A stretch of DNA of 64,000 nt from assembly GCA_964016885.1 (NCBI GenBank), contig OZ024745.1:132060001-132124000 (forward strand), given 5' to 3'. Within the stretch, counting starts at the first letter, position 1. Each line of letters begins with the position of its first letter. Shown here in pieces: positions 1,796-60,439 of the stretch. Both the position numbers and the translations under genes were made by a program. The notes beneath the pieces were generated by a model that was not told where the DNA came from, did not search any database, and saw only the letters and a list, made by a program, of their open reading frames with translations. The stretch is from Eledone cirrhosa. Its lineage: Eukaryota.

Positions 1796-2125
1796 GAAGG
1801 CGCATGGCTTAGTGGTTAGAGCATCGGCCTTGCAATCGAAAGGTTGTGAGTTCAATTCTCAGACCGGGTGATGTGTGTTTCCTTGAGCAAGACACTTTAT
1901 TTCACATTGCTCCAGTTTACTCAGCTGTAGAAATGAGATGATAGGACTGGGGTCCCTATCATTCCACTGCAAAGTGGTCGTGGAGGTGCCATGGCAAAAA
2001 AGCACCCAGCACTCACTGTAAATGAGGCTGGTGTTAGGAAGGGCATCCAGCTGTAGAAATCAAGCCAGAATCAGTTCCCGTCCCACCCTTGCAAGCAGGG
2101 AAAAGCAGACGTAAAATGATGATGA
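1796..2125 (+). mobile_element. tRNA-derived CORE-like SINE, family A, with RTE-type tail and (ATG)n end
   Basis: A-box TGGCTTAGTGG, B-box GAGTTCAATTC, CORE-like CCTTGAGCAAGACACTTTATTTCACATTGCTCCAG, tail GGTGTTAGGAAGGGCATCCAGC shared with the RTE 3' UTR. Near-identical copies at 8751, 14395 and 40769. Confidence 0.85.
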
Positions 2126-2130
2126 TATAT

Positions 2131-2166
<36 letters not shown>

Positions 2167-2167
<1 letters not shown>

Positions 2168-3238
2168 GCGTTAACGTTGGTGTTCATCAGGGCTCCGTTC
2201 TTAGCCCCCTACTATTTATTATTGCCCTTCAGGCTATAACAGAGGAGTTCAAGACCGGCTGCCCATGGGAACTCCTATATGCAGATGATCTAACGCTCAT
2301 AGCTGAATCAATGGCTGAACTAGAGAAGAAATTCCAAACATGGAAGCATGGCCTAGAATCAAAAGGCCTTAAAGTTAACTTGTCTAAGACTAAAGTTCTA
2401 GTTTGTAGGAAGGAAAATAGGGCACCAGTCCCATCTGGGAAATGGCCATGCTTAGTGTGTAGGAAAGGAGTAGGCAGAAACTCCATTTTATGTCCCAAAT
2501 GCAAAGTATGGGTGCATAAAAGATGTAGTGGGATCAAAGGTAAGCTAACTAAGAATATAGATTCTATATGTGGCCGGTGCTCTGGTGCAATAAGTAACAG
2601 CAAGTGCCCACAGAATACTAGTTCATTCCATTGCACAGATGGTTCTATAGAAATAGTGGACACCTTCCGTTACCTGGGTGACAAAATCAGCAGTGGGGGA
2701 GGGTGCTCCGAAAGTACAGTAGCTAGAGTCAGAACGGGATGGAAAAAGTTCAGAGAGCTTATACCACTATTGGCCGCTAAAGGGTTCTCTCTAAAAATGA
2801 AAGGCAGGCTGTATGATGCCTGCATACGAACAGCAATGTTACATGGCAGTGAGACCTGGGCATTGTGTGCAGAGGATATATGCAGACTGGAGAGAAACGA
2901 AGCTTGCATGCTCCGCTGGATGTCTAATAGTAATGTACCTGAACGGCAAAGCATAAACGAACTAAGGGAGAAATTAGGAATAAGAGGGATCAGATATTGT
3001 TTTCTCGAGAGAAGACTACGTTGGTACGGTTACGTGATGCGCATGAAAGACAACTGACAGCTGTATAAAAAAGTGCAAGGCGATGAAAATAGACGGTAGC
3101 CAGGGAGTAGGCAGACCCAGAAAAACCTGGGACGACTTGATAAATTCCGACCTCACACACTTACACTTCTCCAAGACAATGTCACTGGACCGAGATCTTT
3201 GGCGCTACACAGTCATACACAAGACTCGCCTTGCCTAA
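2167..3238 (+). pseudogene. RTE reverse transcriptase C-terminal fragment with inserted PHD-type finger; frameshift near 3055
   Basis: GVHQGSVLSPLLF, LLYADDL, KVNLSKTKV, FRYLG, MLHGSETW, RRLRWYGYVMR; after the frameshift GRPRKTW...DRDLWR, stop at 3236-3238. Confidence 0.92.
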
Positions 3239-13320: not shown

Positions 13321-13696
<376 letters not shown>

Positions 13697-13744
13697 AAAA
13701 TAAAATAAATAAGTCAAATGTTTAAAATTTAGCTTCGTTTATTA

Positions 13745-13797
13745 CTGCTATATATATTTCGGTGACAGCCATCTTTGGTTGTGACCTCTTCAGGCAG
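13745..13797 (-). ncRNA. Type-I hammerhead ribozyme motif
   Basis: Minus strand: CTGC-CTGAAGA-GGTCACAACCA(AAGA)TGGCTGTCACC-GAAA-TATATATA-GCAG. Confidence 0.8.
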
Positions 13798-14055
13798 TCC
13801 GAATTAGTGTGGTATAGACAAGTACATATGTTGTTGAGGTGTATAACCTTGTCAATACTCTGATATGTCCAGTTCCTGGTTGGGTTGTTATTTCACTGAG
13901 GAACTGGAATCATATGTACTTGTCAATACCACACTAATATGATTCCAGTTCCTCAGTGAAATAACAACCCAACCAGGAACTGGGCATATCAGAGTATTGA
14001 CAAGGTTATACACCCCCAACAACATATGTACTTGTCTATACCACACTAATTCGGA

Positions 14056-14108
14056 CTGCCTGAAGAGGTCACAGCCAAAGATGGCTGTCACCGAAATATA
14101 TATAGCAG
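14056..14108 (+). ncRNA. Type-I hammerhead ribozyme motif
   Basis: CTGC-CTGAAGA-GGTcACAGCCA(AAGA)TGGCTGTcACC-GAAA-TATATATA-GCAG: stem I CTGC/GCAG, long stem II, palindromic AT-only stem III. Confidence 0.85.
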
Positions 14109-14261
14109 TAATAAACAAAGCTAAATTTTAAACATTTGACTTATTTATTTTATTTTATTTTATTTTACATTACTCTGGAGTAACCAGACCAACCTGCGCA
14201 CTTCGTCGAGTGCTCCAATCTGCATACTGAGGTGTTGGTATACAACCAACATCTACTCAAA

Positions 14262-14293
<32 letters not shown>

Positions 14294-14394
14294 ATGTGTG
14301 TATATATACATATATATATACATATATATGTGTGTATATATACATATAATATATATATATATATAGAGAGAGATATAGATATGTATACATATAT

Positions 14395-14738
14395 GGAGGC
14401 ACATGGCTTAGTGGTTAGAGCATTGGCCTTGCAATCGAAAGGTTGTGAGTTCAATTCTCAGACCGGGTGATGTGTTGTTTCCTTGAGCAAGACACTTTAT
14501 TTCACATTGCTCCAGTTTACTCAGCTGTAGAAATGAGATGATAGGGACTGGGGTCCCTATCATTTCACTGCAAAGTGGTCGTGGAGGTGCCACGGCAAAA
14601 AAGCACCCAGCGCTCACTGTAAATGAGGTTGGTGTTAGGAAGGGCATCCAGCTGTAGAAATCAAGCCAGCATCAGTTTCCGTCCCACCCTTGCAAGCAGG
14701 GAAAAAAGCGGACGTAAAATGAAATGAAAATGAAATGA
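14395..14738 (+). mobile_element. SINE family A
   Basis: Near-identical to 1796-2125; the tail here is (GAAAT)-like repeats. Confidence 0.88.
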
Positions 14739-15334
14739 TATGTATTTGTGGAGGGCAGTTCTATATACACCACATATAAACATACATGCACAGGCACTAA
14801 AACTCTTGTGCATACACATACACACACACACACACAAACACACACATACATACATACACACATACATACACACACAAGCATGCACACATACATACACACA
14901 CATATACATACACACATACATACATACATACACACACGCACATAGATACATACACACAAACACATACACATAAATAGATAAATAGATAAAGTTCTTTCTT
15001 TATGATTCTTTTGCCAAAGCGCATTAAATCCTCTCCAATTACACAGAACATTATCCTCCTGGTCACACTGACCTTGCTAATAGTCACAGTGATGCAGACA
15101 GCTCTTATTGTGGTCAGCAAATATGTTAGAGTAATATTTAAGGCCTTTTTACTTTATATCAGATAGCCATTATCTTCCTGACTGTTGCCATTACAAATAC
15201 CTCCCCCCGACCTATTTCTCCTACTACTTCTACTCCCCCCACATCGTCATCATCACTCTAACTTCCTCCTTGTCATCCTGCTCTATTTTCTTTTATTTCA
15301 ACCTCTTCATCTTCACAGTCATACTCAGTGCCTC

Positions 15335-15843
15335 CTAATCCTCCACCACCACCACTAACATCATCATCATTAACACCATCACTACTAATATCATCATCAT
15401 CATCATCACCACCACCATCAACACCACTACCATCACCACCATCACCACCACCACCACCATCACCACCACCATCATCACCACCATCACCACCACCACCACC
15501 ACCACCATCACCACCACCACCACCACCATCACCACCACCACCACCACTGTCACCACCACCACCACCACCACCACCACCACCACCACCACCACCACCAACA
15601 CCAACACCACCATCACCATCACCACCACCACTGTCACCACCACCACCACCGTCATCACCACCACCACCACCACCACCACCATCACCACCACCACCACCAC
15701 CACCACTGTCACCACCACCACCACCACCACCACCACCACCACCACCAACACCAACACCAACACCACCATCACCATCACCACCACCACTGTCACCACCACC
15801 ACCACCGTCATCATCACCACCACCACCACCACCACCATCACCA
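15335..15843. repeat. (CCA)n/(TCA)n trinucleotide tract with internal higher-order duplication
   Basis: Direct inspection; source of the poly-Pro/Gly/Val ORFs. Confidence 0.95.
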
Positions 15844-16964
15844 TACAACAATTCCCATTTTTACCAACATTAGGCTTTAACAATGACAATCTAAGTTTTC
15901 TAACAAATAATTTATTTCCAAAGATTTCTAAACAAACTCCAGAATTATCTTCCAGTTTAAATATATTTCATCTAATCTCTCTCACTCTCTCTTCTTCTCA
16001 TTCTCTTTCTTTTATTGTCTCCTCCTCTCTCTCCCCCTCACTATAATATTTTATCATTCCAGGTCAAGCCAGCTACATATATATCGAAGCATTTTATTCT
16101 TGTTTTTTCTCTATTTCATTCCATTTTCTACTGGTAGCCATTGCTAATTTATTTTTGTGTAAACTTTATTGGCAAGTTATGGAGGACAGGAGATGTGTAG
16201 CGGTATAGCTTGTAAGGCTATGTGCCAATAAAATATGGCCAGTCAAAGCTTTACGGATTTTAACTGAATGTAACAGGGTTAAACAATAGTAAATTGTGGG
16301 AATGAAATATATTGTTTCTCTACATCATATAAAGCTCTAAACATTAATTTATTGAGCACCATCATTGACTTCTGTCAGCTTTGCATATCTAGTTGAGAAT
16401 AGCTCCACCATATCACTTGGTGTTATCAGAGACAAGTAAAAGGGCTTGGCACCAGGAAGGGTATCTGGTCATAAAACATTGCCTGAAAAAGGTTCCTACA
16501 GTGACTATGATTAAACCTGTCAATGTGTGCATAAGCCTTCTCTTAGCAAGATATATTGTTTTAAAACAATTGTTGTTGTTTTGTTGTTTCATTATTTATA
16601 TATTTTGAACTAGTGTGGAAAAAATGGACGTTAAATGGTGATGATGATGTTAACAGCTCTAAGCACTGACACCGCTATGTCTATTGAGTTCTCAGCAATG
16701 TAGAGCCCTGGTTAACTATTTAAGTCTGACATTTTATGAATTTTCATATAATTTTAATATCTTGTGACTTTACTATCATGAATATATTTAATCTAGAAAA
16801 ATCTAAATTGACCTTCATTTAATTGTAGGTGGTCGTACTTTATATTAAGCCAGCCATTTTACAGAAATATGATAGCCTGGTCAAATATATACATTTATTT
16901 TAATTGATTTATTCCTCATATTTTAAAATTCAGTTTGTTTACAATATATATATATATATATATA

Positions 16965-17281
16965 TATACAATGATATTAAATAAATGGAAACTATATTTA
17001 TAAAACCATATTTATTCCATTATATACTTGAACCGTTAAGGTATATTCTCCTTGGCTATGTCAAAATTTATAAAACACACTTCGTATTTTATCTGATGAT
17101 AGTGTACCAAAATTTTGGTACCCTTGAAATATATATAATAGAATAAATATGGTTTTATAAATATAGTTTCCATTTATTTAATATCATTGTATATTATACT
17201 CCAGAAAACTTGTTGAGTGCTCTGAATCAGTTATAAACATTTATATTTGCTGAATTACCAACAAATTGAATATCCCTTCTA

Positions 17282-17284
<3 letters not shown>
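16965..17284 (+). mobile_element. Penelope-like pLTR with short 5' inversion between (TA)n tracts
   Basis: 16965-17026 is the reverse complement of ~17132-17193; the body is homologous to 25330-25562. Confidence 0.8.
17085..17145 (+). ncRNA. Type-I hammerhead ribozyme motif
   Basis: TATTTTAT-CTGATGA-TAGTGTACCAAAATTTTGGTACCCTT-GAAA-TATATATA-ATAGAATA; 8-bp stem I with one G-U pair. Confidence 0.78.
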
Positions 17285-17378
<94 letters not shown>

Positions 17379-17384
17379 GTATAA

Positions 17385-17970
17385 ACTGAGAGAGAAAGGG
17401 GGCATAAGAGTGATGAGATAGAGTGTGCAGAGGAGACTGTATTTGTATGGATATGTGATGCATATGAAGGATGGCAGCTGTATAAAAAGGTGCGGAGCAC
17501 TCAAAGTTGATGGAAGCTATGGAATAGGAAGAGCTAGGAAGACCTGGGAAGACTTGGGATGAGGAGATAAAGCTGACCCTACACAATTGCACCTCTCAAA
17601 GGCAATGGCACAGGACTGTGTTTTCTAGCACTATGCAGTAATACCAAAGACCCACCATCCTCCTTGAACAGGTTGAAGCTTTCATCTAGTTTGCATCTTC
17701 ACCTCCCATGTTGTAACACCTCACTCCTCATCTACGTCCCACGATCTATCTCCCCAATCCCCACCACAGTCCTCAGCCCACACTGTAAAGTGGTTGTGTC
17801 ACAACAAAAAATCTCCTAGAACACACTATAAATGTGTTTGGCATTAGGAAGGGCATCAAGTCATAGAAACGAAGCCAGAAACAGTTCTGTATTAGCATGA
17901 CAAGGTCACCTGACCTGACATGCCTCAAATGAGAAAACCTGTCTAACCCATGTGAGCATGGAAAATGGTA
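17385..17970 (+). mobile_element. Degenerate RTE 3' end (ORF end plus 3' UTR)
   Basis: RRLYLYGYVMHMKDGSCIKRCGALKVDG...GRPGKTWDEEIK, followed by the GGAAGGGCATC tail. Confidence 0.8.
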
Positions 17971-18192
17971 AGCAGTATACGGTACTGATGAATGGTAATC
18001 ACCCACAAACAATAGTATCTGCCGTTCTGTTTATATGCCAACACTTGATCATACTGACATGGCTTAAAGAGACTGTTTGCATAATTGGAAACAAATAAAA
18101 TATTATTAATATTCGAAAAACTCACATTTATTGTATTCAGCCATGTAGAGCAATAAAACTATTTGTTAGTTATATAATATATATATATATAT

Positions 18193-18665
18193 ATCATCAT
18201 CACTGTTTTACATCCATTCTTCCACGCTAGGATGGGTTAGACGGGTTGTCCTGTTGTGTGCAGTGTCTGGTCAGCTGACCTTGTCTTGCTCAAACGGGAA
18301 CTGATTCTAGCTTGATTTCAACAGTGGATGCCCTTCCTAACACCAACCTCGTTTACAGTGAGTGCTGGGTGCTTTTTTGCCGTGGCACCTCCACGACCTC
18401 TTTGCAGTGGGAGGGGTTGGGGGCATATTTTCTATATGCTTCAGCTTCAGCTTGAACCCATGGGAAGTCGTGTCTTCTGTATTACTGCGTGACGTCAGAG
18501 GCCACGGTCGTGTCATCGCCTTTGAGAGGTGCAATTGGGTAAGGTCAGCTTTTATCACCTCATCCCAGGTCTTCTTGGGTCTCCCCCACTCCGCGGCTTC
18601 CATCGACTTCTAGTGCTCTGCACCTTTTTATGCAGCTGTCATCCTTCATACACATCACATGTCCA
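18193..18665 (-). mobile_element. Degenerate RTE 3' end
   Basis: Minus strand YGHVMCMKDDSCIKRC...GRPKKTWDEVIKADL, 3' UTR and (ATG)n tail. Confidence 0.82.
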
Positions 18666-18825
18666 TACACACACATGTATATGTATGTCTATATCTAGCT
18701 ATCTATCTATCTATATATATATAGATATATATCCATATATATACATGTGTGTAATGGTAGCTATGGTGCTTCCATAGGTCGTATGCCAAAATTAGCACTC
18801 AATATTCTTACAGAGCAGAGTGTGA

Positions 18826-19297
18826 ATAGTATAAAAAAACGAAAAATCAGTGATGCATCTGGACTCAGTTTATTGCGTGTTACAATTGTTTCGCCGGCAG
18901 GTAGAGACATGATCACTGTATGGATCTGGCTGATTCTACGGCTGCAGGTTTCTTTGGACACATGCAATTCTTTCAGAGCAAATTTTCTCACTGGAGTGTT
19001 ATCATAAAAAAACACCTTCAAAAACATCTTCCACTCTTGTCATGCCATTGGCTGTTGTTTTTCTATGTCATCATAAATTCTGGTCACTATTTACTGCTAC
19101 ACTGGTCATCAGCCATTTTCTGTTCCAGTGAGAAAATTTGCTCCGAAAGAATTGCATGTGCCTGAAGGAACCTGCAGCCATAGAATCAGCCAGATCCATA
19201 CAGTGATCATGTCTTGAGCTACCTGCGAGCGAAACAATTGTAAGGCGCAATAAACTGAGTCCAGATGCATCACTGATTTTTCGTTTTTTTATACTAT
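18826..19297. mobile_element. Inverted repeat (~170-bp arms) with degenerate hammerhead-like cores; probable PLE pLTR inversion
   Basis: 18826-18995 vs 19124-19297. Plus arm GTGC-CTGAAGG...GAAAC-AATT-GTA; minus arm GTGT-CCAAAGA...GAAAC-AATT-GTA-ACAC. Ends at (TA)n. Confidence 0.65.
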
Positions 19298-19368
<71 letters not shown>

Positions 19369-19836
19369 AACAAAATATATTTTCACTCTTAACGTGGTGG
19401 ATACCTAAATGTATTGGTGAGTGAATATCAATAATATTATAATAACATCACAATCATCATCATCATGTATTTTAATTGTCACAATCATCATCATCATCAT
19501 CATGTATTTTAATTGTTCAATCATTGCCTGGTGCAGCCATATTGCAGGTATGTTTTCATTCATTTATTTTTTAATTTTCAAACACGAGGTGATAACAAAC
19601 ACTCGGTTTATTTCGGTCAATCTCGTTATAAAGAATTTTTCCTTACAGCCAATTTTTTTTATAACTTGTAAATTTCTTTATAACGGAATTTCACTGTATA
19701 TATATATATATAGACACAAATATACATATGTCTCCTTCTCAACAAGGAAGATGCAAAATCTTACCTCAACACTTGACTTTAAATCTTTAATTTTTAGTTT
19801 TTAATCCTTATTAATTCTTTTTAATTGTAATACTCA

Positions 19837-19882
19837 GCATTTGATAAGATGAATTTTACTAATACTTCGAAACCAGTAATAC
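19837..19882 (+). other. Degenerate hammerhead-like motif
   Basis: GCAT-TTGATAA-GATGAATT(TTACT)AATACTTC-GAAAC-CA-GTA-ATAC; two core substitutions. Confidence 0.4.
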
Positions 19883-20048
19883 TTTACGTATATACTTTAT
19901 ATACTTTACATACATTATATAACTCTTTTTTTTAAAAGAATTGTCCTGCTCATTTTTTCAATAATGTCACTTTGATGAATGAAAAAAAAGGAAAAAAAAG
20001 GAAAAACAGACCCTTAAATATATTTTCAGTGCTGTTTCCAATCCCCCC

Positions 20049-20079
<31 letters not shown>

Positions 20080-20916
20080 ATAACAATAATAATATTTAAA
20101 GGAAGTCATTGAAAGAACTGGTGCATCTCCGATCGTTCTGTCACTCAATGCTTTAATTAAGCCAGCATTACTGGGATACCAACCAAACAGGAAAGCAGAT
20201 TGCACACTTATACGTTAATACGTGAGAGAAACGATTTTATGTGGGTAAAGAGATTATTTCTTTGTACATAAATATATATATATGAGAGAGAGAGAGAGGG
20301 GGGGATATATATATAATAGAGAGAGAGAGAGAGAAAGAGAGATAAGTGTAAGATCCTAATCATTATCATTGTCATTTTAACATCCACTTTAGCATGCTGG
20401 AATGGGTAGAGATAGAGATATACAGAGCTAGAGCAGTGAAGTGTGTTGAATAAAACCTGCATTTTGAAATTTATATGACAGCAAAATGTGGCTTTTGAAG
20501 ACAAAAGACCTGAAAAATATTGAATAGAGAATATATATAATGGGATTCAGTAATATACACAACACATATATACAGACACACATATACAAACACACACACA
20601 CACACATACATATAGATCTATATATATATATAAGGCTGAGTGGTAAAAGAATTGGATTCCCAATCGTGAGGTTGTGACTTCAATTCCTAGACCAGGCAAT
20701 GCATAATGTTCTTGAGCAAGACACTTTATTTCACATTGCTCCTTCTACCTGGAGTTGCGACCGATAGATAGTATTAGCAACAGGAAAGACCAACGGAAAC
20801 ATTGTTTCCTTGGTCCAATTAGATGAAAGTCGATTGACTGTTGATATATATATATACATATATATAAATATATATAAATATATATACATATATATAAATA
20901 TATATACATATGTATG

Positions 20917-20947
<31 letters not shown>

Positions 20948-21315
20948 TTGTTGTGGTATATGTATGGCCTACTGCTCTAACCACTAAGCCATGCGCCTTC
21001 ACATGTATATATATATATATGAAAGACCCCTCAGCCAGTTACAGATTTAAAGATATTTTACTCAACGCCTATGACAGTAAAGAAGAACAGATAGAGACAT
21101 TCAATATAGAAGAGCACTGGGAGTTCCTAATCAAGCCAAAATCAGTTCCTGTATGAGCAAGGCATGGTGAGCTGACCAGACACTGCCCACAACAGGATAA
21201 CCCGTCTAACCCATGCTAGCATGGAAGAACGGACGTAAAACGGTGATGATGATGATGATATATATATATACTCCAGTTATATACATATACATATGACTCC
21301 AGTTCCCCAGTGAAT

Positions 21316-21460
21316 TAAACGAAGCTAAATTTTAATCATTTGACTTTTATTTAACTTTATTTTACACTACTCCGGAGTAACTAAACCAACCTGCACACTT
21401 CGTTGAGTGCTCCAGCCTGCATACTGAGGTGTTGGTATACAACCAACATAAACTCAAAAT
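21316..21460 (+). mobile_element. PLE 3' tail fragment (family of 13695-14262) lacking the hammerhead
   Basis: Homologous to 14112-14262; ends at (TA)n. Confidence 0.8.
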
Positions 21461-21461
21461 C

Positions 21462-21519
<58 letters not shown>

Positions 21520-21561
21520 CGTGGAAGAACGGACGTAAAACGGTGATGATGATGATGATGA

Positions 21562-21596
<35 letters not shown>

Positions 21597-21598
<2 letters not shown>

Positions 21599-21800
21599 GG
21601 AGGTGAGTTTTATTGTAGTACAATAAAGCAATGCAAATATCGGATAAGTAGCACTCTACAGTTTGTAGGACTGGAGTATAAATAATATAAGATCAAAAGA
21701 TGGTTAAACGAGTTCCAAGTATTTTATTATGCGCATTTCAAAAACAAATTTCATCATGAGATGATATCTGCGTTTTCATCAGATAAAATAGGGATACATG
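21597..21800 (-). mobile_element. Penelope-like pLTR of a third family, ending at (TA)n
   Basis: Minus strand order: hammerhead, bulged hairpin, terminal hairpin TTTATTGT-ACT-ACAATAAA, then (TA)n. The 5' extent is unknown. Confidence 0.75.
21720..21790 (-). ncRNA. Type-I hammerhead ribozyme motif
   Basis: Minus strand: TATTTTAT-CTGATGA-AAACGCAGATATCATC(TCAT)GATGAAATTTGTTTTT-GAAA-TGCGCA-TA-ATAAAATA; perfect 8-bp stem I, palindromic ATGCGCAT stem III. Confidence 0.88.
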
Positions 21801-22334
21801 ATATGAAGGTTAAAAAACACTTGTGAATAGTGAAGTTTTACTATATATATACAAAGATTATAGTAGTAATCGGTTTCTGTTAGTTGAATTTGTGTAACTT
21901 AAAATAGAAGACCGTGTCAAGATACAATGGTTTTTCACTTAACATATGAATCACTTTCCGTAGTTTTTCTGTGGTGATCAACCATAGATACAATAAAGGT
22001 AATTCCTCGAGTATCTATATAGAAATTAATAAATTACATGAATACACCAATTTCACAATTGAAGGATTAATATTTATTATGTAAATGACACGTGTTTCGT
22101 TAATATGTAAGTGAGCACATCCAGAGCTGCTAATCTGATGTTATTTTCAAAGAATTTGAATTCCAATATTCTGCTTCAACAGTTTTACATATGTGTGTGT
22201 GTGTGAATGTGTATGTGTCTGTGCATGTGTATGTGTGTGTGTCTGTGCATGTGTGTGTGTGTGTGTGTATGTTTGTGTAGTTAGAATCCCAGAAGAGATG
22301 GGGCAAGAAGCGAGAGAATAGAATTGAGATATTA

Positions 22335-22478
22335 GATATATGTTATATATATGTTATATATATGTTATATATATGTTATATATATGTTATATATATGTTA
22401 TACATATGTTATATATATATTATATATATATTATATATATGTTAGATATATGTTATATATATGTTAGATATATATTAG
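22335..22478. repeat. 11-bp AT-rich minisatellite (TGTTATATATA)n
   Basis: Direct inspection. Confidence 0.9.
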
Positions 22479-23439
22479 AATTGTAATCCAAATATTGCAT
22501 GTGGTGATAATCATAATACCCATCTCAGCCTCCCATGGAATTAAAGCTTTGCTGTTATATCAGCAGAAGTTTCTGTTGGGACTAAACTATAGTTATAGAG
22601 AATTCCTAGCTACATTTGGATAATTCTCTGAAGTAAAAGTGTACTTTCTATATTAATTACATACTTGACCAAGTTGTGTATAAATAAAGCTTAAATAAAT
22701 AAGCTTATCTAATTTTATTTTAAACCAATTATAAGAATGTCTATTAGTATTTTGTTTCATTAGTTTAAGAATTATATTTAGTATTGTGGTAAAAATGATA
22801 TACAGTACTTTATTACTGTATATATTTGTATATCCCTAGTGACACAACTGATTGTATTAAAAATTGTTAAAATAAAACACAAACAAAAAAATGACTCATG
22901 CAACATTGTGACACTTGTGAAATCATCATCACCATCATCATAATTGCCATCATCATCATCATCATCACCATTGCTATCATGATCACCATCGCCACCATCA
23001 CCACCATCATCATCCATCACCATTGTCGTGGCTGTCATTGTTGTCATCTTTTACATGCACTTCTCCATGTAGGTAGGATGGGGTTTTTTTGGGGCCTTCC
23101 AATTGCCAACCCTTGTTTTTTTTTTAAAGTCAGGTGTTGATCTTCACGTGTTGAACTAGTGAGCAGCAGGATATTGTTTCTGCCATTAATGGCTGTGTCG
23201 GGTAAAATTTCCATCAAAGGATAGAAATCAGCGGCTAGAAATGTGTTGACCCACAGAAGTGATAGGTAGAAACGAGAAAGCGATGAAATGGATGAGAGCG
23301 GATCTCACAAACATTAAATTTTCTCGTCAGCTTTTAGGCCGCCTGTGGTTTCGACGATTTAACTAAAAGGACCACGTAAGATAGAAGGCTCGTGACAACG
23401 GAGAAATAAATATCGCTGTTGGTATAATGTTCCACCACT

Positions 23440-23988
23440 ATGAATTTAGCGCAGAATATTAATAGAATTAATAATAGAAACTTAAAACCTAACCAGAATA
23501 GCATTAATACCCCTAACAATATCCAATATAAGGTTACGGCTCCCAATAATATAAATTTAGATAAATGTTATTGTAGAAATAAATCTAACTGTCCTCTAAA
23601 TAATAATTGTTTAGTTAAAAATATTGTATACAATTGTAATGTCAAAACAAATGAAAACTCCTTTAACTATGTCGGCTCTACTTCCACAGACTTCAAATAT
23701 CGTTTTAATAACCCTAAATGTTCCTTTACGAATATTGGTAAAACATCTTCAACTTCTCTATCTAACTTATTATGGGACTTGAAATCCAAGAATATTAACT
23801 ATTCTTTACTTTGGAAAATTATTTCCAAAGCTCCTTCATACACTCCTTTATCCTAAAATTGCTCTCTTTGTGCTGAAGAAATATTCTTCATACTAAAAAG
23901 TAAGAACTCTATTAATTTGCGAAATCATTTATTCAGTTCCTGCAAACATCGTTTAAACTCAACTTTTAAATATATATATAAAATGTAA
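23440..23988 (+). pseudogene. PLE GIY-YIG endonuclease domain with one in-frame TAA (23854-23856)
   Basis: CYCRNKSNCPLNNNC (CxCx5Cx5C), IVY..YVGST..FKYRF, TSLSNLLWDLK, then in frame after the stop NCSLCAEEIFFI..INLRNHLFSSCKH. Confidence 0.88.
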
Positions 23989-25361
23989 TATATGATTTAT
24001 CTCTTTTACATAATGTCTTCTATATCTATATATGATTCATATATTTAATTTACTTTCTATTATCTCTACTTCACATATATATACTATATACTTTATATTA
24101 TTACACCTATCGATAGATTATAAAATTTCCTTATATGACTGCTTGAAACTCCTTTAAGGAAAATATTTTCTTGTAAAACTTACGGAAGGTTTTAAGAAAA
24201 TCTTTTGAAAATTCCTTTGAAAGATATAGAAAAAACATTATTTTCATACCTTCCAATACTTTTATATTGTTATATTTTTATATTTTTATATCTTCAAACG
24301 TTTTTAATATATATATCCAAATGTTTATATATATGTGGAAAAACATGATTTTTATATTTAGGTTTTTTATATATATGTGGAATAACCTATGGTTTATGCT
24401 TTAAATATATTCTTAAGATAAATTTTCTAAATGTTTTAACTTTATAGCAAGTAAATTTATGACTTCGTATAAAATAACATGGTTCATGTTTTAATTATAT
24501 TCTTAAGATAAAAAATTTGTTTAACTTTTTAACTTTATAACATTTAATCCTTAGTCATCTGAGTTCTTAAAAAACCACTTCTAACTTCCTTTACACTACC
24601 TTACTGTTTTTATAATATAACTAAGTGGTTATTCCTTTGTAAACTCTCGGAAAGTTTTCATAAATTTAGAATTATTTGGATGTTTAAATTTTGACTTACA
24701 ACTTTTAATAAAATAAACTATACTAGATTTGCTCTAATGTAAAATACTATATATTATTTAAATAATTTATAATCCTTAACATACACATTTAAACTAATTA
24801 TTAATATTAAATTATTAAATTAAATCTTTAATATTAAGGTAAATTTTAATCTTTAATTTTGATTTCTAATTTTTTAATTTTAATTTAATTTTAATCTAAT
24901 TTTTCAACCTATCATTATAAATATTATAATCAAAACGTAATGAATCCTGCATTATAAATATTATTCTTCCACGTTATTCTCATTTCTTCTCTCAATTAGA
25001 TATTAGATATACTTACGCTGTGTATATTTGTCCTTTGAAATTCATCTCTTCATGCACTCTATTTTCACTATCAATATATATAATCGTTCTTTCTTTCCTC
25101 TTCTATCTTCCTCCTTCCTTTTTCTTTTTTTCTTTTTTCTTTATTTCTTTTTTTTTCTCTCTCCCTTACATATCACCTTCTTCCAACAGTTTCATTTAAA
25201 TAAACCGTTATCTTTTCAATCTTTCGGACACTCATTTGCATACTCACTCATAATTTTGTATCACCCTCAATAAATGTAATATCTCCACTATCCAGGAAGC
25301 CCCAACCGCTATGGTTGTCTTTTTTCCGGGTATGTCAATATTTATTTATAAAACAAATCTG

Positions 25362-25427
25362 TATTTTATCTGACGAAAGCGCACCATAATTTGCCTTGCT
25401 TGCCCTTGAAATATGTATAATAAAATA
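25362..25427 (+). ncRNA. Type-I hammerhead ribozyme motif
   Basis: TATTTTAT-CTGACGA-AAGcGCA...TGCcCTT-GAAA-TATGTATA-ATAAAATA. Confidence 0.8.
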
Positions 25428-25735
25428 AATATGGTTTTAATAATATAGTTTCCATTTATTAATATATTGTGTATTTACTCCACGAAACTGTTGAGTGCTT
25501 TATATCAGTTATAAAAATGTTTAAGCTTGTTGAATCCCAACAAATTAAATATAACCTCTGCATATATATATATATATATATATATGCACATATAAATATA
25601 TGTATGTCTGTATATATATATATATATGTATCTATATATATATGTATATATATCAGATAGGGTGTGGTAAAAAACCAGGTAAACCACAACCCACCTGAAT
25701 ACTCGAGACATGGGGTAGTAGAGTGGGTAATATGA

Positions 25736-25816
25736 AAAGATTCAGGACCCTGACAGCTAGATCTGTTCAGATCTAGCTGTCGAAATGGCCGAAGCTCAGC
25801 TGTCGGGGTCCTGAAT

Positions 25817-25820
<4 letters not shown>
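25736..25820. repeat. Nested fold-back next to (TA)n
   Basis: Outer arms AAAGATTCAGGACCCTGACAGCT / AGCTGTCGGGGTCCTGAATCTTT; inner palindrome GACAGCTAGATCT-GTTC-AGATCTAGCTGTC. Confidence 0.9.
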
Positions 25821-25873
<53 letters not shown>

Positions 25874-27060: not shown

Positions 27061-27105
27061 GAGCAGCACTGTGAGATTTGAACATAAAAGATAGGCTAAA
27101 TGAAA

Positions 27106-30100
27106 CCCAGTGGACCATTTAGACCAGTCTATCACAGTTTCTCTCATCTTACTATACATGGTCCCAGTGGACTATTTAGACCAGTCTATCACAGTTTCTC
27201 TCATTTTACTATACATGGTCCCAGTGGACTATTTAGACCAGTCTATCACAGTTTCTCTCATTTTACTATACATGGTCCCAGTGGACTATTTAGACCAGTC
27301 TATCACAGTTTCTCTCATTTTACTATACATGGTCCCAGTGGACTATTTAGACCAGTCTATCACAGTTTCTCTCATTTTACTATACATGGTCCCAGTGGAC
27401 TATTTAGACCAGTCTATCACAGTTTCTCTCATCTTACTATACATGGTCCCAGTGGACTATTTAGACCAGTCTATCACAGTTTCTCTCATCTTACTATACA
27501 TGGTCCCAGTGGACCATTTAGACCAGTCTATCACAGTTTCTCTCATTTTACTATACATAGTCCCAGTGGACCATTTAGACCAGTCTATCACAGTTTCTCT
27601 CATTTTACTATACATGGTCCCAGTGGACTATTTAGACCAGTCTATCACAGTTTCTCTCATTTTACTATACATGGTCCCAGTGGACCATTTAGACCAGTCT
27701 ATCACAGTTTCTCTCATTTTACTATACATAGTCCCAGTGGACCATTTAGACCAGTCTATCACAGTTTCTCTCATCTTACTATACATGGTCCCAGTGGACC
27801 ATTTAGACCAGTCTATCACAGTTTCTCTCATTTTACTATACATAGTCCCAGTGGACCATTTAGACCAGTCTATCACAGTTTCTTTCATCTTACTATACAT
27901 GGTCCCAGTGGACCATTTAGACCAGTCTATCACAGTTTCTCTCATCTTACTATACATGGTCCCAGTGGACCATTTAGACCAGTCTATCACAGTTTCTTTC
28001 ATCTTACTATACATGGTCCCAGTGGACCATTTAGACCAGTCTATCACAGTTTCTTTCATCTTACTATACATGGTCCCAGTGGACTATTTAGACCAGTCTA
28101 TCACAGTTTCTCTCATTTTACTATACATAGTCCCAGTGGACCATTTAGACCAGTCTATCACAGTTTCTCTCATCTTACTATACATGGTCCCAGTGGACCA
28201 TTTAGACCAGTCTATCACAGTTTCTCTCATCTTACTATACATGGTCCCAGTGGACCATTTAGACCAGTCTATCACAGTTTCTTTCATCTTACTATACATG
28301 GTCCCAGTGGACCATTTAGACCAGTCTATCACAGTTTCTTTCATCTTACTATACATGGTCCCAGTGGACTATTTAGACCAGTCTATCACAGTTTCTCTCA
28401 TTTTACTATACATAGTCCCAGTGGACCATTTAGACCAGTCTATCACAGTTTCTTTCATCTTACTATACATGGTCCCAGTGGACCATTTAGACCAGTCTAT
28501 CACAGTTTCTCTCATTTTACTATACATAGTCCCAGTGGACCATTTAGACCAGTCTATCACAGTTTCTCTCATCTTACTATACATGGTCCCAGTGGACTAT
28601 TTAGACCAGTCTATCACAGTTTCTCTCATCTTACTATACATGGTCCCAGTGGACCATTTAGACCAGTCTATCACAGTTTCTCTCATTTTACTATACATAG
28701 TCCCAGTGGACTATTTAGACCAGTCTATCACAGTTTCTCTCATTTTACTATACATGGTCCCAGTGGACCATTTAGACCAGTCTATCACAGTTTCTCTCAT
28801 CTTACTATACATAGTCCCAGTGGACTATTTAGACCAGTCTATCACAGTTTCTCTCATCTTACTATACATGGTCCCAGTGGACTATTTAGACCAGTCTATC
28901 ACAGTTTCTCTCATCTTACTATACATAGTCCCAGTGGACTATTTAGACCAGTCTATCACAGTTTCTCTCATTTTACTATACATAGTCCCAGTGGACCATT
29001 TAGACCAGTCTATCACAGTTTCTCTCATCTTACTATACATAGTCCCAGTGGACTATTTAGACCAGTCTATCACAGTTTCTCTCATCTTACTATACATGGT
29101 CCCAGTGGACCATTTAGACCAGTCTATCACAGTTTCTCTCATTTTACTATACATGGTCCCAGTGGACTGTTTAGACCAGTCTATCACAGTTTCTCTCATC
29201 TTACTATACATGGTCCCAGTGGACCATTTAGACCAGTCTATCACAGTTTCTTGCATCTTACTATACATGGTCCCAGTGGACCATTTAGACCAGTCTATCA
29301 CAGTTTCTCTCATTTTACTATACATGGTCCCAGTGGACCATTTAGACCAGTCTATCACAGTTTCTTTCATCTTACTATACATGGTCCCAGTGGACCATTT
29401 AGACCAGTCTATCACAGTTTCTTTCATCTTACTATACATGGTCCCAGTGGACCATTTAGACCAGTCTATCACAGTTTCTCTCATTTTACTATACATGGTC
29501 CCAGTGGACCATTTAGACCAGTCTATCACAGTTTCTTTCATTTTACTATACATGGTCCCAGTGGACCATTTAGACCAGTCTATCACAGTTTCTCTCATCT
29601 TACTATACATGGTCCCAGTGGACCATTTAGACCAGTCTATCACAGTTTCTCTCATCTTACTATACATGGTCCCAGTGGACCATTTAGACCAGTCTATCAC
29701 AGTTTCTCTCATTTTACTATACATGGTCCCAGTGGACCATTTAGACCAGTCTATCACAGTTTCTCTCATTTTACTATACATGGTCCCAGTGGACCATTTA
29801 GACCAGTCTATCACAGTTTCTCTCATTTTACTATACATGGTCCCAGTGGACCATTTAGACCAGTCTATCACAGTTTCTCTCATCTTACTATACATGGTCC
29901 CAGTGGACCATTTAGACCAGTCTATCACAGTTTCTCTCATCTTACTATACATGGTCCCAGTGGACCATTTAGACCAGTCTATCACAGTTTCTCTCATCTT
30001 ACTATACATGGTCCCAGTGGACCATTTAGACCAGTCTATCACAGTTTCTCTCATCTTACTATACATGGTCCCAGTGGACTATTTAGACCAGTCTATCACA

Positions 30101-31540
30101 GTTTCTCTCATTTTACTATACATGGTCCCAGTGGACCATTTAGACCAGTCTATCACAGTTTCTCTCATTTTACTATACATGGTCCCAGTGGACCATTTAG
30201 ACCAGTCTATCACAGTTTCTCTCATCTTACTATACATGGTCCCAGTGGACCATTTAGACCAGTCTATCACAGTTTCTCTCATCTTACTATACATAGTCCC
30301 AGTGGACTATTTAGACCAGTCTATCACAGTTTCTCTCATCTTACTATACATGGTCCCAGTGGACCATTTAGACCAGTCTATCACAGTTTCTCTCATCTTA
30401 CTATACATGGTCCCAGTGGACCATTTAGACCAGTCTATCACAGTTTCTCTCATCTTACTATACATGGTCCCAGTGGACTATTTAGACCAGTCTATCACAG
30501 TTTCTCTCATTTTACTATACATGGTCCCAGTGGACCATTTAGACCAGTCTATCACAGTTTCTCTCATTTTACTATACATAGTCCCAGTGGACCATTTAGA
30601 CCAGTCTATCACAGTTTCTCTCATCTTACTATACATGGTCCCAGTGGACCATTTAGACCAGTCTATCACAGTTTCTCTCATCTTACTATACATAGTCCCA
30701 GTGGACTATTTAGACCAGTCTATCACAGTTTCTCTCATCTTACTATACATGGTCCCAGTGGACCATTTAGACCAGTCTATCACAGTTTCTTTCATCTTAC
30801 TATACATGGTCCCAGTGGACTATTTAGACCAGTCTATGACAGTTTCTCTCATTTTACTATACATGGTCCCAGTGGACCATTTAGACCAGTCTATGACAGT
30901 TTCTCTCATTTTACTATACATGGTCCCAGTGGACCATTTAGACCAGTCTATCACAGTTTCTCTCATCTTACTATACATGGTCCCAGTGGACCATTTAGAC
31001 CAGTCTATCACAGTTTCTTTCATCTTACTATACATGGTCCCGGTGGACCATTTAGACCAGTCTATCACAGTTTCTCTCATTTTACTATACATAGTCCCAG
31101 TGGACTATTTAGACCAGTCTATCACAGTTTCTCTCATCTTACTATACATGGTCCCAGTGGACCATTTAGACCAGTCTATCACAGTTTCTTTCATTTTACT
31201 ATACATGGTCCCAGTGGACTATTTAGACCAGTCTATCACAGTTTCTCTCATCTTACTATACATGGTCCCAGTGGACTATTTAGACCAGTCTATCACAGTT
31301 TCTCTCATTTTACTATACATGGTCCCAGTGGACTATTTAGACCAGTCTATCACAGTTTCTCTCATCTTACTATACATGGTCCCAGTGGACTATTTAGACC
31401 AGTCTATTACAGTTTCTCTCATCTTACTATACATGGTCCCAGTGGACTATTTAGACCAGTCTATTACAGTTTCTCTCATCTTACTATACATGGTCCCAGT
31501 GGACTATTTAGACCAGTCTATTACAGTTTCTCTCATCTTA
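27106..31540. repeat. 57-bp tandem array, ~78 copies, highly homogeneous
   Basis: Unit CCCAGTGGAC(C/T)ATTTAGACCAGTCTATCACAGTTTCT(C/T)TCAT(C/T)TTACTATACAT(G/A)GT. Confidence 0.99.
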
Positions 31541-31635
31541 AAGACAAAGTTGACCTTGGTGGTATTTAAACTCAGTGAGTAGAAAGCCAAAATGAACACC
31601 ACAAAACATTCTATACGATTCTGCCAATTCGCTGC
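31541..31635 (-). mobile_element. 5' part of a SINE family B copy abutting the 57-bp array
   Basis: AAGACAAAGTTGACCTTGGTGGTATTTAAACTCAG is the reverse complement of the family B B-box and core start. Confidence 0.65.
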
Positions 31636-52985: not shown

Positions 52986-55271
52986 CACTGGTCAACAAAA
53001 TTAAATGTATTATACTCATTATGAATGCAAACCAACTGTTTTAGATTAATTTTTCATGCTGATTTCAAAATTTAACTCTTGTATGCAGCACGTATCAGTT
53101 TTTCAGTAGATACATGTAAATATTTACATATTTGTAGATATGAAATCATTAACGTAATAAATAAGGACATATTTTTAGAAAGTAAATGAGTTTATTGAGT
53201 TAAAAATCATCACTATCATTCTACAAAGAGTGAATACACAAAAAAATGGGTCTGACAAAACAGACAAAGTTAGAATAACAGAGTTAGAAACATTGTGATT
53301 TGGATTTCCTGTGGTGTTCCTGATCTGGTTGATCATGGTAAAGTGTCCAACAGTAGTCAGCCAGCATACTGTCATTCTAGAAGCCTTGGTACCGTTTCTC
53401 CATAGCACTAATGTCCTGGTGAAATCTTTCACCATGTTCATCAGACACTGCTCCAAGGTTATCTGTGAAGAAATCCAGATGGGAGTCCAAGAAGTGAACT
53501 TTCAGTGACATGCGAGTAACATTTGCTGAGTAACATTTCAGAAGATTCTTGATGCCATCCTTGTAGTCCATTACCTTCTTGTTGCCCAAGAAATTCTCAC
53601 AGATCCAATTGAAAGCATTCCAGGCAGGCAGTTCCAGTTCATCCAGTATTGTCTTGAAGTTGACATCTTTGAGTACTTCTCTAATTTGGGGTCTGACAAA
53701 GATACCCTCTTTCAACTTTGCCTGTGTGATTTTGGGTAACCTTTCTACGATATACTCAAACCCTCTAGCATTTCTCTTCCCTGGTGTCTTTACAAACTGT
53801 TTCATCAGTCCAAGCTTTAGTTGCAAAGGAAGCAATAAGACATTACTTGGATCTACAAGAGATGTATTCTTGATGCTAGACAGTCCTGGATGGTATGATG
53901 TTCTTGTCTGCTAGTTTGATTCCGAATAATGTCTGTCAGTTGTCCGAATATTCCATAGACACAAGAAACAACAGTATTTTGTGAAACCTGACTGCATTCC
54001 CATAAACTTTCCAATGACTTTTAAATCCCCACATATTTTCCATGAGTATTTTTCATAGACAATGGCATGAAGTAAAAGTTCCATATTCTCATATGATTCA
54101 TGAAGATGAACGGAGTGTGCAATAGGAATGGAAGGCTTCAAATTACCATTATGGAGAAGTACAGCTTTTAAACTTCGTTTTGAAGAGTCAATAAACAAAC
54201 GCCACTCTGCAGGATCATGATTTTGTGATAAACATTCGAAAAGTCCATTGCAAAAGCAAAGCAGGCCTTTAACAGAAAAACACATTTGTAGAACCACATT
54301 TCTCTGCCGAAAATAAGTTATATGAACACCTTGCTCTAGCAGATACTTCTCCTTCAGTCTTGATGCCAACAGTTCTGCTTTATCTTTTGAGAGGGATAGG
54401 TCTCTGACAAGGTCATTCAGTTCAGCTTGGGAAAATATCTGAGGTTCAAAGCTATCATCATCAGCCACGTAATCTTCCTCAACAGCACTATCGGGACAGT
54501 CAACATCATCATCTGATGTTTCAATACCATCATTTGGTGGAACTGGAATTGGCAGACTTCCATTTTGAGGCACAGGTCTCATTGCAGAATCCAAATTTAC
54601 TTTGCAAAAATAACAGTCATTGAAATGGTCTTTCGGCTCCCTCCGTATCATTGGAATGGCAAAAGGCATGGACTTCTTCTTCTTATTGAACCAGTCATGT
54701 AAGCCATTTGAGCAAGCTGAGCAGATAAAATGTGGTGCCCATAACTTGTCCTGATCTCCAAGAGGACAGTCAAAGTAGAGCTTATAAATCTTCTTGGTCT
54801 CTGGTGTTATTGTACGTTTTTGAGCTTTCACAATAAATTGTCCACAGACAACAAAACACATCAGGACGATTTCTACACTGTCTTGACATTGTTATCACTG
54901 TAAAACAAGTAAGATATTGAAATATTTCATCAGACCAATTATGACTGGACAATTTGAGATGTTGAAATACCTATTTCATCAGAGAAAACTTGATTGGGTA
55001 ATTTAAGATGATGAAATATTGCATCTGAACTATGCAGCAATGAATAATGTAGTTTATTTTAAAGGTATGTTTCCATGATGTAAACGAAATACATGCATAC
55101 ACGTCATTAATTGGAATTTCTATATAATGCATGAGCTAAAACCAAAAAACTTTCTCATCTTGAAAACTGTACGCGATGTCAAAAAACTAATTGTATATTT
55201 GAAATCAGCATTAAAAACTACACTAAGTACAGCTTGACATATGCTTGATGAAAAATACTTCTTGACCAGTG
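52986..55271 (-). mobile_element. Full-length Chapaev3-type (CMC) DNA transposon
   Basis: TTA|CACTGGTCAA ... TTGACCAGTG|TTA (10-bp TIR, 3-bp TSD); subterminal inverted ATGCTGATTTCAAA / TTTGAAATCAGCAT; internal transposase. Confidence 0.88.
53284..54889 (-). pseudogene. Chapaev3-type transposase, disrupted
   Basis: MSRQCRNRPDVFC, GDQDKLWAPH, WRLFIDSSKRSLKAVLLHNGN, ICGDLKV, SDEHGERFHQDI, MLADYCW; frameshift near 54850 and TAG stops at 53911 and 53377. Confidence 0.88.
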
Positions 55272-59620: not shown

Positions 59621-60439
59621 ATAAGAGGAAATTATAGATAATTTTCATGCTACCATGGCTCAAATAGATTTTTTGCTGTATTTGGAGCAATTTTTTTTAC
59701 AATTGAAAACACATTTTTTTATGCCTAACGATTGAACTATAACGGTTAAGAATTTGGAAGCAAGTAAAGAAAAAAATAGTTTCCTTGTTCAAAAATACAA
59801 TACAAAAGTTGTACTGTGGTTTGAACTTGTGATCATATGGTGAATTGTCGACAGTTTTAATCATATGACCATTATATCTTCTTTTTAGTATATAAAATTC
59901 ATTTCTCCCTCTTGTAAGTAGAATTTCTTACATGTCTTAGTAGTTATTTCCAAAAGAATAAATAGTTAATATTTAGAAAACAGAAATATGTAGAATTAAG
60001 TGATCTGTCTTGAGAATAGCATCAATAGAACAGAATAGCATCATGATTGTCGTCATCAGTTTTTATGTCCATTTTTACATAGAACAAGAGTTTTTGTGGT
60101 TGAACTGTTTTATAGCCAGCTGCCCTTCCTGATGCAAACCTATACTATAGTAAGTGTGGTATATATGTAGCTAAATGTTCATTGAACTGCTACACTGCGT
60201 GTAGGATTGTTTATAGTGGACTTAGATAATGTTAGAACTTGATTTTTTAAATATTGTTGATATGACATTTGCAGTGACTGGGTATATACACAGACACACA
60301 TACACAAACAAGCATACATATATATATATATAAGTGGTGTGGGATGCTTAAAGCATCCGTAAGCGGTATGCCGTTTGAGCACTCGATGCTTTTACAGAGT
60401 AGAGTATAATATCACATAAGAAACGGAGAATCAGAGCAG

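Follow-up and report, generated by a model that had tools for sequence, protein, structure and literature searches.

A paired RNA hairpin at the ends of Hydra-clade Penelope-like elements, a probable docking and start-site signal for their reverse transcriptase

Penelope-like elements (PLEs) are the closest retroelement relatives of telomerase. Their Hydra clade is characterized, in the accessible text of PMC8557442, by a C-terminal endonuclease, RWK-type and DKT motifs, a CxCX5C linker without CCHH, a hammerhead ribozyme in the pseudo-long-terminal-repeat (pLTR), (TA)n targets and a length below 3 kb that is a tendency only. Insertion as two head-to-head arms, of which one bears a tail, is a known PLE trait that goes unexplained in the accessible parts of PMC3846280 and PMC8557442. 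For Poseidon_Ac, a PLE of another clade, the accessible part of PMC11167929 reports that the reverse transcriptase (RT) starts internally at two tail-matching sites 3' of the hammerhead, with the tail between them, that targets are AT-rich and both strands are extended, that RNA 3' of the starts is needed, and that hammerhead cleavage is dispensable and a dimer predicted; the starts lie inside the open reading frame (ORF) in an 'AC-rich stem loop', and no binding motif, whether conserved or duplicated, is named in that text. Here we analyze a stretch of 64,000 nucleotides (nt) from Eledone cirrhosa (contig OZ024745.1, positions 132,060,001 to 132,124,000, forward strand; hereafter the window), in which a bulged hairpin recurs at the ends of elements that by their sequence are Hydra-clade PLEs, with the same endonuclease, RT motifs, linker, pLTR hammerhead and (TA)n targets as those described. 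Only the hammerhead is annotated in the accessible text of PMC8557442, and the hairpin, its second copy and their link to the tail are unmentioned there. We consider it likely that the hairpin is a paired RNA docking and start-site signal for the Hydra-clade RT; unlike those of Poseidon_Ac, the putative starts fall in the 5' untranslated region, one at the foot of each hairpin.

A sequence-only reading of the window had proposed five hairpins in otherwise dissimilar families, four of them some 40-65 nt 3' of a hammerhead. All five are present where it placed them, letter for letter, and minimal type I hammerhead cores do accompany four (14060, 17093 and 25370 on the plus strand, 21782 on the minus strand), at core-to-motif distances of 105-112 nt or, measured from the end of stem I, about 42-61 nt. 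Four further copies had been overlooked, the last two listed here being degenerate. The features are as follows, m1 and m2 denoting the first and second hairpin of a unit.

14055..14109, plus strand: minimal type I hammerhead, family A, tail-bearing arm
14172..14214, plus strand: hairpin m1, family A, ACTC..GAGT-GCT with a 30-nt upper domain (pattern match)
14172..14262, plus strand: family A tail, from m1 to the long end, then (TA)n
13695..13937, minus strand: inverted partner arm of family A, with a hammerhead at 13744-13798, stopping at the short end before m1
17088..17143, plus strand: minimal hammerhead upstream of the 17198 hairpin
17198..17221, plus strand: hairpin m1, family B subfamily; tail to about 17285
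16969..17040, minus strand: inverted short-end partner arm of the 17198 copy
21369..21411, plus strand: hairpin m1 of a 5'-truncated family A copy with no hammerhead left; tail to 21459
21650..21677, minus strand: hairpin m1, family C; tail to about 21595; m2 and ORF in the read-through copy L079
21722..21788, minus strand: minimal hammerhead, family C, core start 21782 (limits counted from the sequence)
23428..23856, plus strand: broken Hydra-clade ORF remnant of the family B element ending at 25562, with a linker CxCx5C-type motif and a GIY-YIG-type domain
25364..25425, plus strand: minimal hammerhead, family B
25477..25499, plus strand: hairpin m1, family B; tail to 25562, then (TA)n
60378..60405, minus strand: hairpin m1, family D; tail to about 60334
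18794..18821, minus strand: hairpin m1, D-like copy
25698..25724, minus strand: degenerate m1 in a copy resembling the non-coding family G
16334..16360, plus strand: GCTC-type copy in an old, decayed element (covariance model match, E 0.003)

Within the window alone the excess of TACTC-N6-34-GAGTG is modest, at 8 matches against 2.99 +/- 1.62 in shuffled sequence, with 1 of 100 shuffles reaching 8. Across the 3.0-Gb genome, which is rich in (TA)n, TACTC-N9-16-TTGAGTGCT matches 20,576 times (reversed control 39) and the variant GCTC-N10-20-TNGAGCACT 16,147 times (control 296), that is, more than 36,000 matches against 335, and this abundance is not due to chance. The motif sits at element ends, as a dinucleotide run follows within 130 nt in 28/30 and 27/30 of the first 30 matches of each pattern.

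In general form the hairpin reads RCUC-[paired domain]-UN-GAGY-RCU, and compensatory changes are seen across 75 families, drawn from this genome and from other organisms. A sequence-only anchor gave 599 instances, from which 142 with an ambiguous start were dropped, and the remaining 457 clustered into 75 groups, none of which was removed. Watson-Crick pairing at the four variable pairs was found in 65/75 groups for the first lower pair and in 68/75, 50/75 and 50/75 for the upper ones; none of 20,000 permutations was as high at these four pairs, and slid controls gave 2-22/75. The covariation sought for the proposed hairpin in a larger alignment is thus present across the family clusters, and a tool-based pairing count on 14 rows agrees (covariation 0.59 vs 0.16). 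In the foreign subset taken alone, the first lower pair is almost wholly G-C and carries no covariation signal (p 0.21). The lower helix, described as invariant, in fact comprises four base pairs of which the first varies (G-C in 48 clusters, A-U in 17, G-U in 6 and A.C in 4, with U-A as a further type in the m2 of E-type families), and the T.G pair counted into its base is not conserved, being Watson-Crick in 20/75, under the permutation mean; a fifth base pair below the helix was rejected. The bulge reads UU in 49 clusters, UA in 12, UC in 11 and UG in 3, its U having been part of the anchor, and on the sense strand G.U exceeds A.C (24 vs 10). The upper stem opens with C-G in the m2 of 20/21 units and with U-A in the m1 of 12/21. 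An apparent T-G/C-A covariation after GAG was rejected, m2 often reading GAGC-GCT. These pairings come from anchored counting and a near-equal-length set; MAFFT inserted no gaps among 40 variable-length hairpins, and the 34-position covariance model, whose 100-row alignment was fitted to the structure, misses the long-insert family A copies of the window.

The hosts carry the marks of the Hydra clade. A first-look search with the ORF remnant gave 51,525 candidates in the genome. Long copies include an uninterrupted ORF of 741 amino acids in L365 and another long ORF in L201, with an RT followed by a C-terminal GIY-YIG-type domain; Pfam returned no match to the ORF, and the domains were therefore read from motifs and homologues. 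Both loci hold RWRAF and SDKT (DKT replacing DKG), and the RW motif at ORF starts reads RWRAF in families A and D and RWIAF in family C. The CxCX5C linker appears as CNCRDRSKC/CNCRNKSNC with one Cys before the YVG strand and no CCHH (families B and C only), and the pLTR hammerhead and insertion into (TA)n complete the set, although the tandem unit spacing of family B, 3,715 nt in L384, lies above the usual Hydra-clade length. In a tree holding no named reference, with both outgroups long and partial, 24 motif-type proteins stand apart from two canonical-type PLEs (100/99). Assignment to Neptune or Naiad was rejected, the ORF motifs fitting Hydra, and no relative was found in viral contigs. In a separate observation, family D loci L151-L175 carry a hammerhead variant whose 62-nt stem II domain escapes short descriptors.

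An alignment of 21 homologues was used to collect 77 metagenome and 21 genome-contig loci; the records of the genome contigs carry titles of bacterial assemblies, and their DNA is probably animal. In these loci 61 instances of the motif lie on the ORF strand and 9 on the opposite one (shuffles 1-8), 33/44 loci have a copy no further than 60 nt from the ORF start, and two copies are found in 20/35. L314-L334, in records titled in this way, hold PLEs with (TA)n flanks and are probably host animal DNA. In the part of the PMC8557442 consensus file that was accessible, inspection by eye showed the motif intact in Hydra-2_Amil, Hydra-2_Ajap and Hydra-1_Ajap (in the latter twice before the ORF) and with one mismatch in Hydra-1_Crog, and did not reveal it in Hydra-1_Amil or Hydra-1_Obim. 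In the Naiad and Chlamys files all 10 GAGTGCT sites, and the first 10 of the 22 GAGCACT sites, were without visible hairpin context, line breaks limiting this search.

As the motif is often doubled ahead of the foreign ATG, a second copy was predicted just past the long end of the elements studied here, and was then found. Full-length units are ordered hammerhead, m1, tail, m2, AUG, with m1 73-141 nt past the hammerhead core and m2 8-40 nt before the ORF start. In read-through copies of family B, m2 begins 8 nt beyond the long end and precedes the ATG by 21 nt, while in read-through relatives of family A it lies 99 nt after the start of m1, with the ORF ATG 26 nt after m2; 34 family A matches to the m2 pattern included 32 with the same continuation (control 0). 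The second copy was also seen in 3/10 family D matches and in the family C locus L079, and both hairpins are present in 16/20 long-ORF loci, the remaining four being truncated or mutated there. A covarying helix connects the segments behind the two hairpins, where the 24 nt following m1 pair with the 24 nt following m2 (cognate -12.0 vs -6.4 +/- 2.8 kcal/mol in 21 non-redundant units of 74; the cognate segment is the best partner in 13/21). An ATCAG segment of family B, considered as a blocker of the hammerhead core, was rejected in that role, as it pairs with the post-m2 segment. Several families also hold a second hairpin inside the tail, whose sequence is not conserved.

The ends of the elements fall in two classes around these hairpins. 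Searching the genome with families A, B and C gave 30 loci for each (L030 is a duplicate of L003), in which short ends at -18 to +2 from the m1 start account for 24/47, 20/51 and 21/53 matches and long ends at +77 to +92 for 22, 31 and 32, with one match elsewhere. Family D shows the same two classes, so that the known optional tail starts with the first hairpin. Counting only ends followed by an AT-rich run, the modal last base that matches a read-through copy lies, relative to m1, at -5 in family A (43/96; a repetitive anchor adds noise), -3 in B (17/29), -8 in C (16/40, with -10 in 13), -4 in D (11/20) and -4 in F (10/23), and, relative to m2, at -4 in A (6/15, with -8 in 5), -4 in B (28/29), -7 in C (21/24) and -4 in D (15/21). 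Copies thus stop at (TA)n about 3-10 nt before m1 or m2, so that the tail equals the m1-m2 interval and the signal itself is left out of the copy at that end; the positions are upper limits because the last bases are common to the (TA)n target. The foreign loci have (TA)n 29-42 nt after m1 (18 cases) and an m1-m2 spacer of 35-56 nt (25 cases). In L388/L389 we observed a rare third end, where a family A arm extends beyond m2 and gives way to (TA)n after 5 nt.

These ends support the suggestion that the hairpin is a cis-element for RT recognition or priming, as they lie at its 5' foot and the second copy explains the second end. A fixed distance between motif and end would fit a cut as well as a start, and the hairpin might act as DNA, folding in single-stranded complementary DNA (cDNA) or in the second strand, with the GIY-YIG endonuclease cutting just 5' of it while resolving the intermediate and so trimming products to two ends. 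Craig et al. ascribe the tail to endonuclease-mediated resolution (PMC8557442, accessible text), and the Drosophila virilis tail is reported to be needed for endonuclease recognition (Frangieh et al., PMC11167929, accessible text). We nonetheless regard action as DNA as unlikely: the 4-6 A/T bases that junctions share with the (TA)n target are as priming would give, the G.U pairs, sense-strand bias, 75-90-nt upper-domain inserts and long-range helix look RNA-like, and the two ends of the anole element match in vitro RT start sites (accessible text of PMC11167929).

The arrangement of arms bears on a further alternative. Head-to-head arms occur in 75/114 loci, of which 71 combine a short with a long end, 3 are long plus long and 1 is short plus short (71/75; p 8e-10 if arms are independent and both ends equally likely). 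The queries were biased toward long arms, which accounts for one long arm per pair and not for its short partner. Were the hairpin to direct cleavage of the RNA a few bases ahead of it, whether the RNA cuts itself or a host nuclease acts, the resulting two 3' ends would enter ordinary target-primed reverse transcription and the same two genomic ends would be expected; a nuclease, no less than an RT, could be suited by the invariant CUC/GAG, the U-bulge and the RCU. Such cleavage does not by itself explain inverted pairs with one end of each kind, the hairpin has no Rfam ribozyme match, and the anole PLE starts internally on uncut RNA (PMC11167929, accessible text), so that we judge it distinctly unlikely.

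For the docking and start-site signal that we favor, we infer that the RT binds each hairpin, that priming occurs at the A/U foot, and that both hairpins serve in one event. A read-through or circular transcript would fold such that the post-m1/post-m2 helix holds both hairpins together, and the RT-endonuclease, perhaps as two protomers, would bind both and cut both strands of the (TA)n target. Each target 3' end would then prime cDNA after annealing to the A/U-rich stretch immediately 5' of a hairpin, and the two cDNAs would extend toward the 5' end and be joined head to head, the optional tail being the distance between the two start sites. Whether a single PLE RNA with two linked hairpins loads two RT-endonuclease protomers and primes both cut strands, with a module of ~130 nt sufficing in trans, is in our estimation evenly balanced. 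If so, twin priming would produce tail and head-to-head inversion from a single event, unlike the target-primed reverse transcription of R2 and of long interspersed elements (LINEs), and this module alone would mobilize any upstream RNA in trans.

Non-coding families also keep the pair of hairpins, as expected of an RT signal shared with non-autonomous partners. Family G is a 257-nt tandem unit without an ORF that retains m1 and m2 and stops at both hairpin feet (22 and 17 copies), and the E-type families are tandem units of 570-620 nt, likewise with m1 and m2 (L410, L411, L412, L182 and L199), whose m2 has a third type of pair, UCUC..GAGA, and a 75-90-nt insert. A relaxed descriptor that recovered two positive controls found no canonical hammerhead in 4/4 G and E units. 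These derivatives disfavor the suggestion that the hairpin is a tertiary partner of the minimal ribozyme, and short-end arms carry the converse, a hammerhead without the hairpin. A role as ribozyme partner or regulator, or as a translation signal for the nearby AUG, with the element ends coinciding for other reasons, would draw on the position of m1 downstream of the hammerhead core and of m2 just ahead of the ORF, and on the long-range helix ending beside the AUG. We consider it highly improbable, as G uses both ends with no hammerhead found and a core pair lies within 170 nt upstream in only 20/30 and 14/30 sampled motif matches (two patterns). As separate observations, family G, very common in the fetched loci, retains a short ATG remnant and, of a hammerhead, just the GAAA half (L414:560-1330; window 25660-25825, minus strand).

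Several observations weigh against the docking and start-site signal. Kinship among families inflates all permutation tests, and TA microhomology blurs the junctions. The proposed drawing matches the minimum-energy structure in 2/5 window copies, the other 3/5 preferring other folds; in read-through units both hairpins form with high probability in 4/6, and the m1 pair probability is 0 in the family A unit and 0.38 in the family D unit, so that the predicted fold would need protein or full context. Near the ORF start, 11/44 foreign loci fail the strict descriptor, several with near variants and others without the motif. The E types, with m1 intact, showed 0 short ends in 23 and 4 places, in loci picked with a tail-bearing query, and their long-ends-only pattern is left unexplained by a start-site model. 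Finally, a canonical-clade PLE of this genome (DKG, CCHH), which has two ends separated by a 38-nt tail, lacks the motif, and the motif therefore does not explain all PLE tails.

Similar signals are known from other retroelements. The 3' untranslated region of R2 holds a similar recognition stem near the copying start. The 3' stem-loop common to the autonomous eel LINE UnaL2 and its non-autonomous short interspersed element is likewise bulged or internally looped and stands beside the copying start (accessible part of PMC1636434). In UnaL2 and R2 the signal is single and lies inside the copied 3' end, whereas the PLE hairpin is double, 3' of the start and excluded from the copy. Hepadnavirus epsilon is a stem-bulge-stem RNA that binds the RT near a start codon and whose 5'-side bulge templates protein priming; the PLE bulge is 2 nt long and on the 3' side and the start would be outside the hairpin on a DNA primer, making this a resemblance only. 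Non-LTR retrozymes (without long terminal repeats) are, like G and E, short tandem units that are non-coding and presumably mobilized by PLEs (accessible parts of PMC7229834 and bioRxiv 10.64898/2026.07.22.740005), and are defined there by a type I hammerhead, in place of which G and E, with none found, have two hairpins. Rfam gave 0 matches at gathering score in the window and none in 8 loci, its weak matches being mostly microRNA models on microsatellites. The motif had been put forward as undescribed, and no description was found in Rfam or in the titles and abstracts that full-text literature searches listed, searches that lay outside subscription journals, Repbase and Dfam; overall it is apparently a clade-wide, undescribed RNA signal in a known element family.

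Such a short clade-wide signal with exact predicted start sites bears on PLE template choice, the optional tail and the inverted arms, matters for which the cited papers see a need for an in vitro system, and the start-site question is testable with a few compensatory mutants. For annotators it marks element ends and start codons and exposes hammerhead-less non-coding dependants, and it suggests that RT-directed insertion into (TA)n could be guided by a compact signal.

The canonical PLE (L418-L447 around 1717-1800) is young and targets (TA)n. The likely start codon falls within its 38-nt tail. A GCAAAC in this tail has a potential pairing partner in GTTTGC beyond the long end, and each of the two ends is followed by CATT.CAC, perhaps another signal built on the same principle. 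Elsewhere in the window, a 63-nt tandem repeat extends over roughly 4.5 kb (positions 27100-31580), with two of its forward frames open. At 53377-54891 on the minus strand are two adjacent ORFs with a Cys-rich start, which we take to resemble a DNA-transposon protein. A LINE-type RT fragment lies at 2038-3057 on the plus strand, and similar pieces recur in many of the fetched loci.

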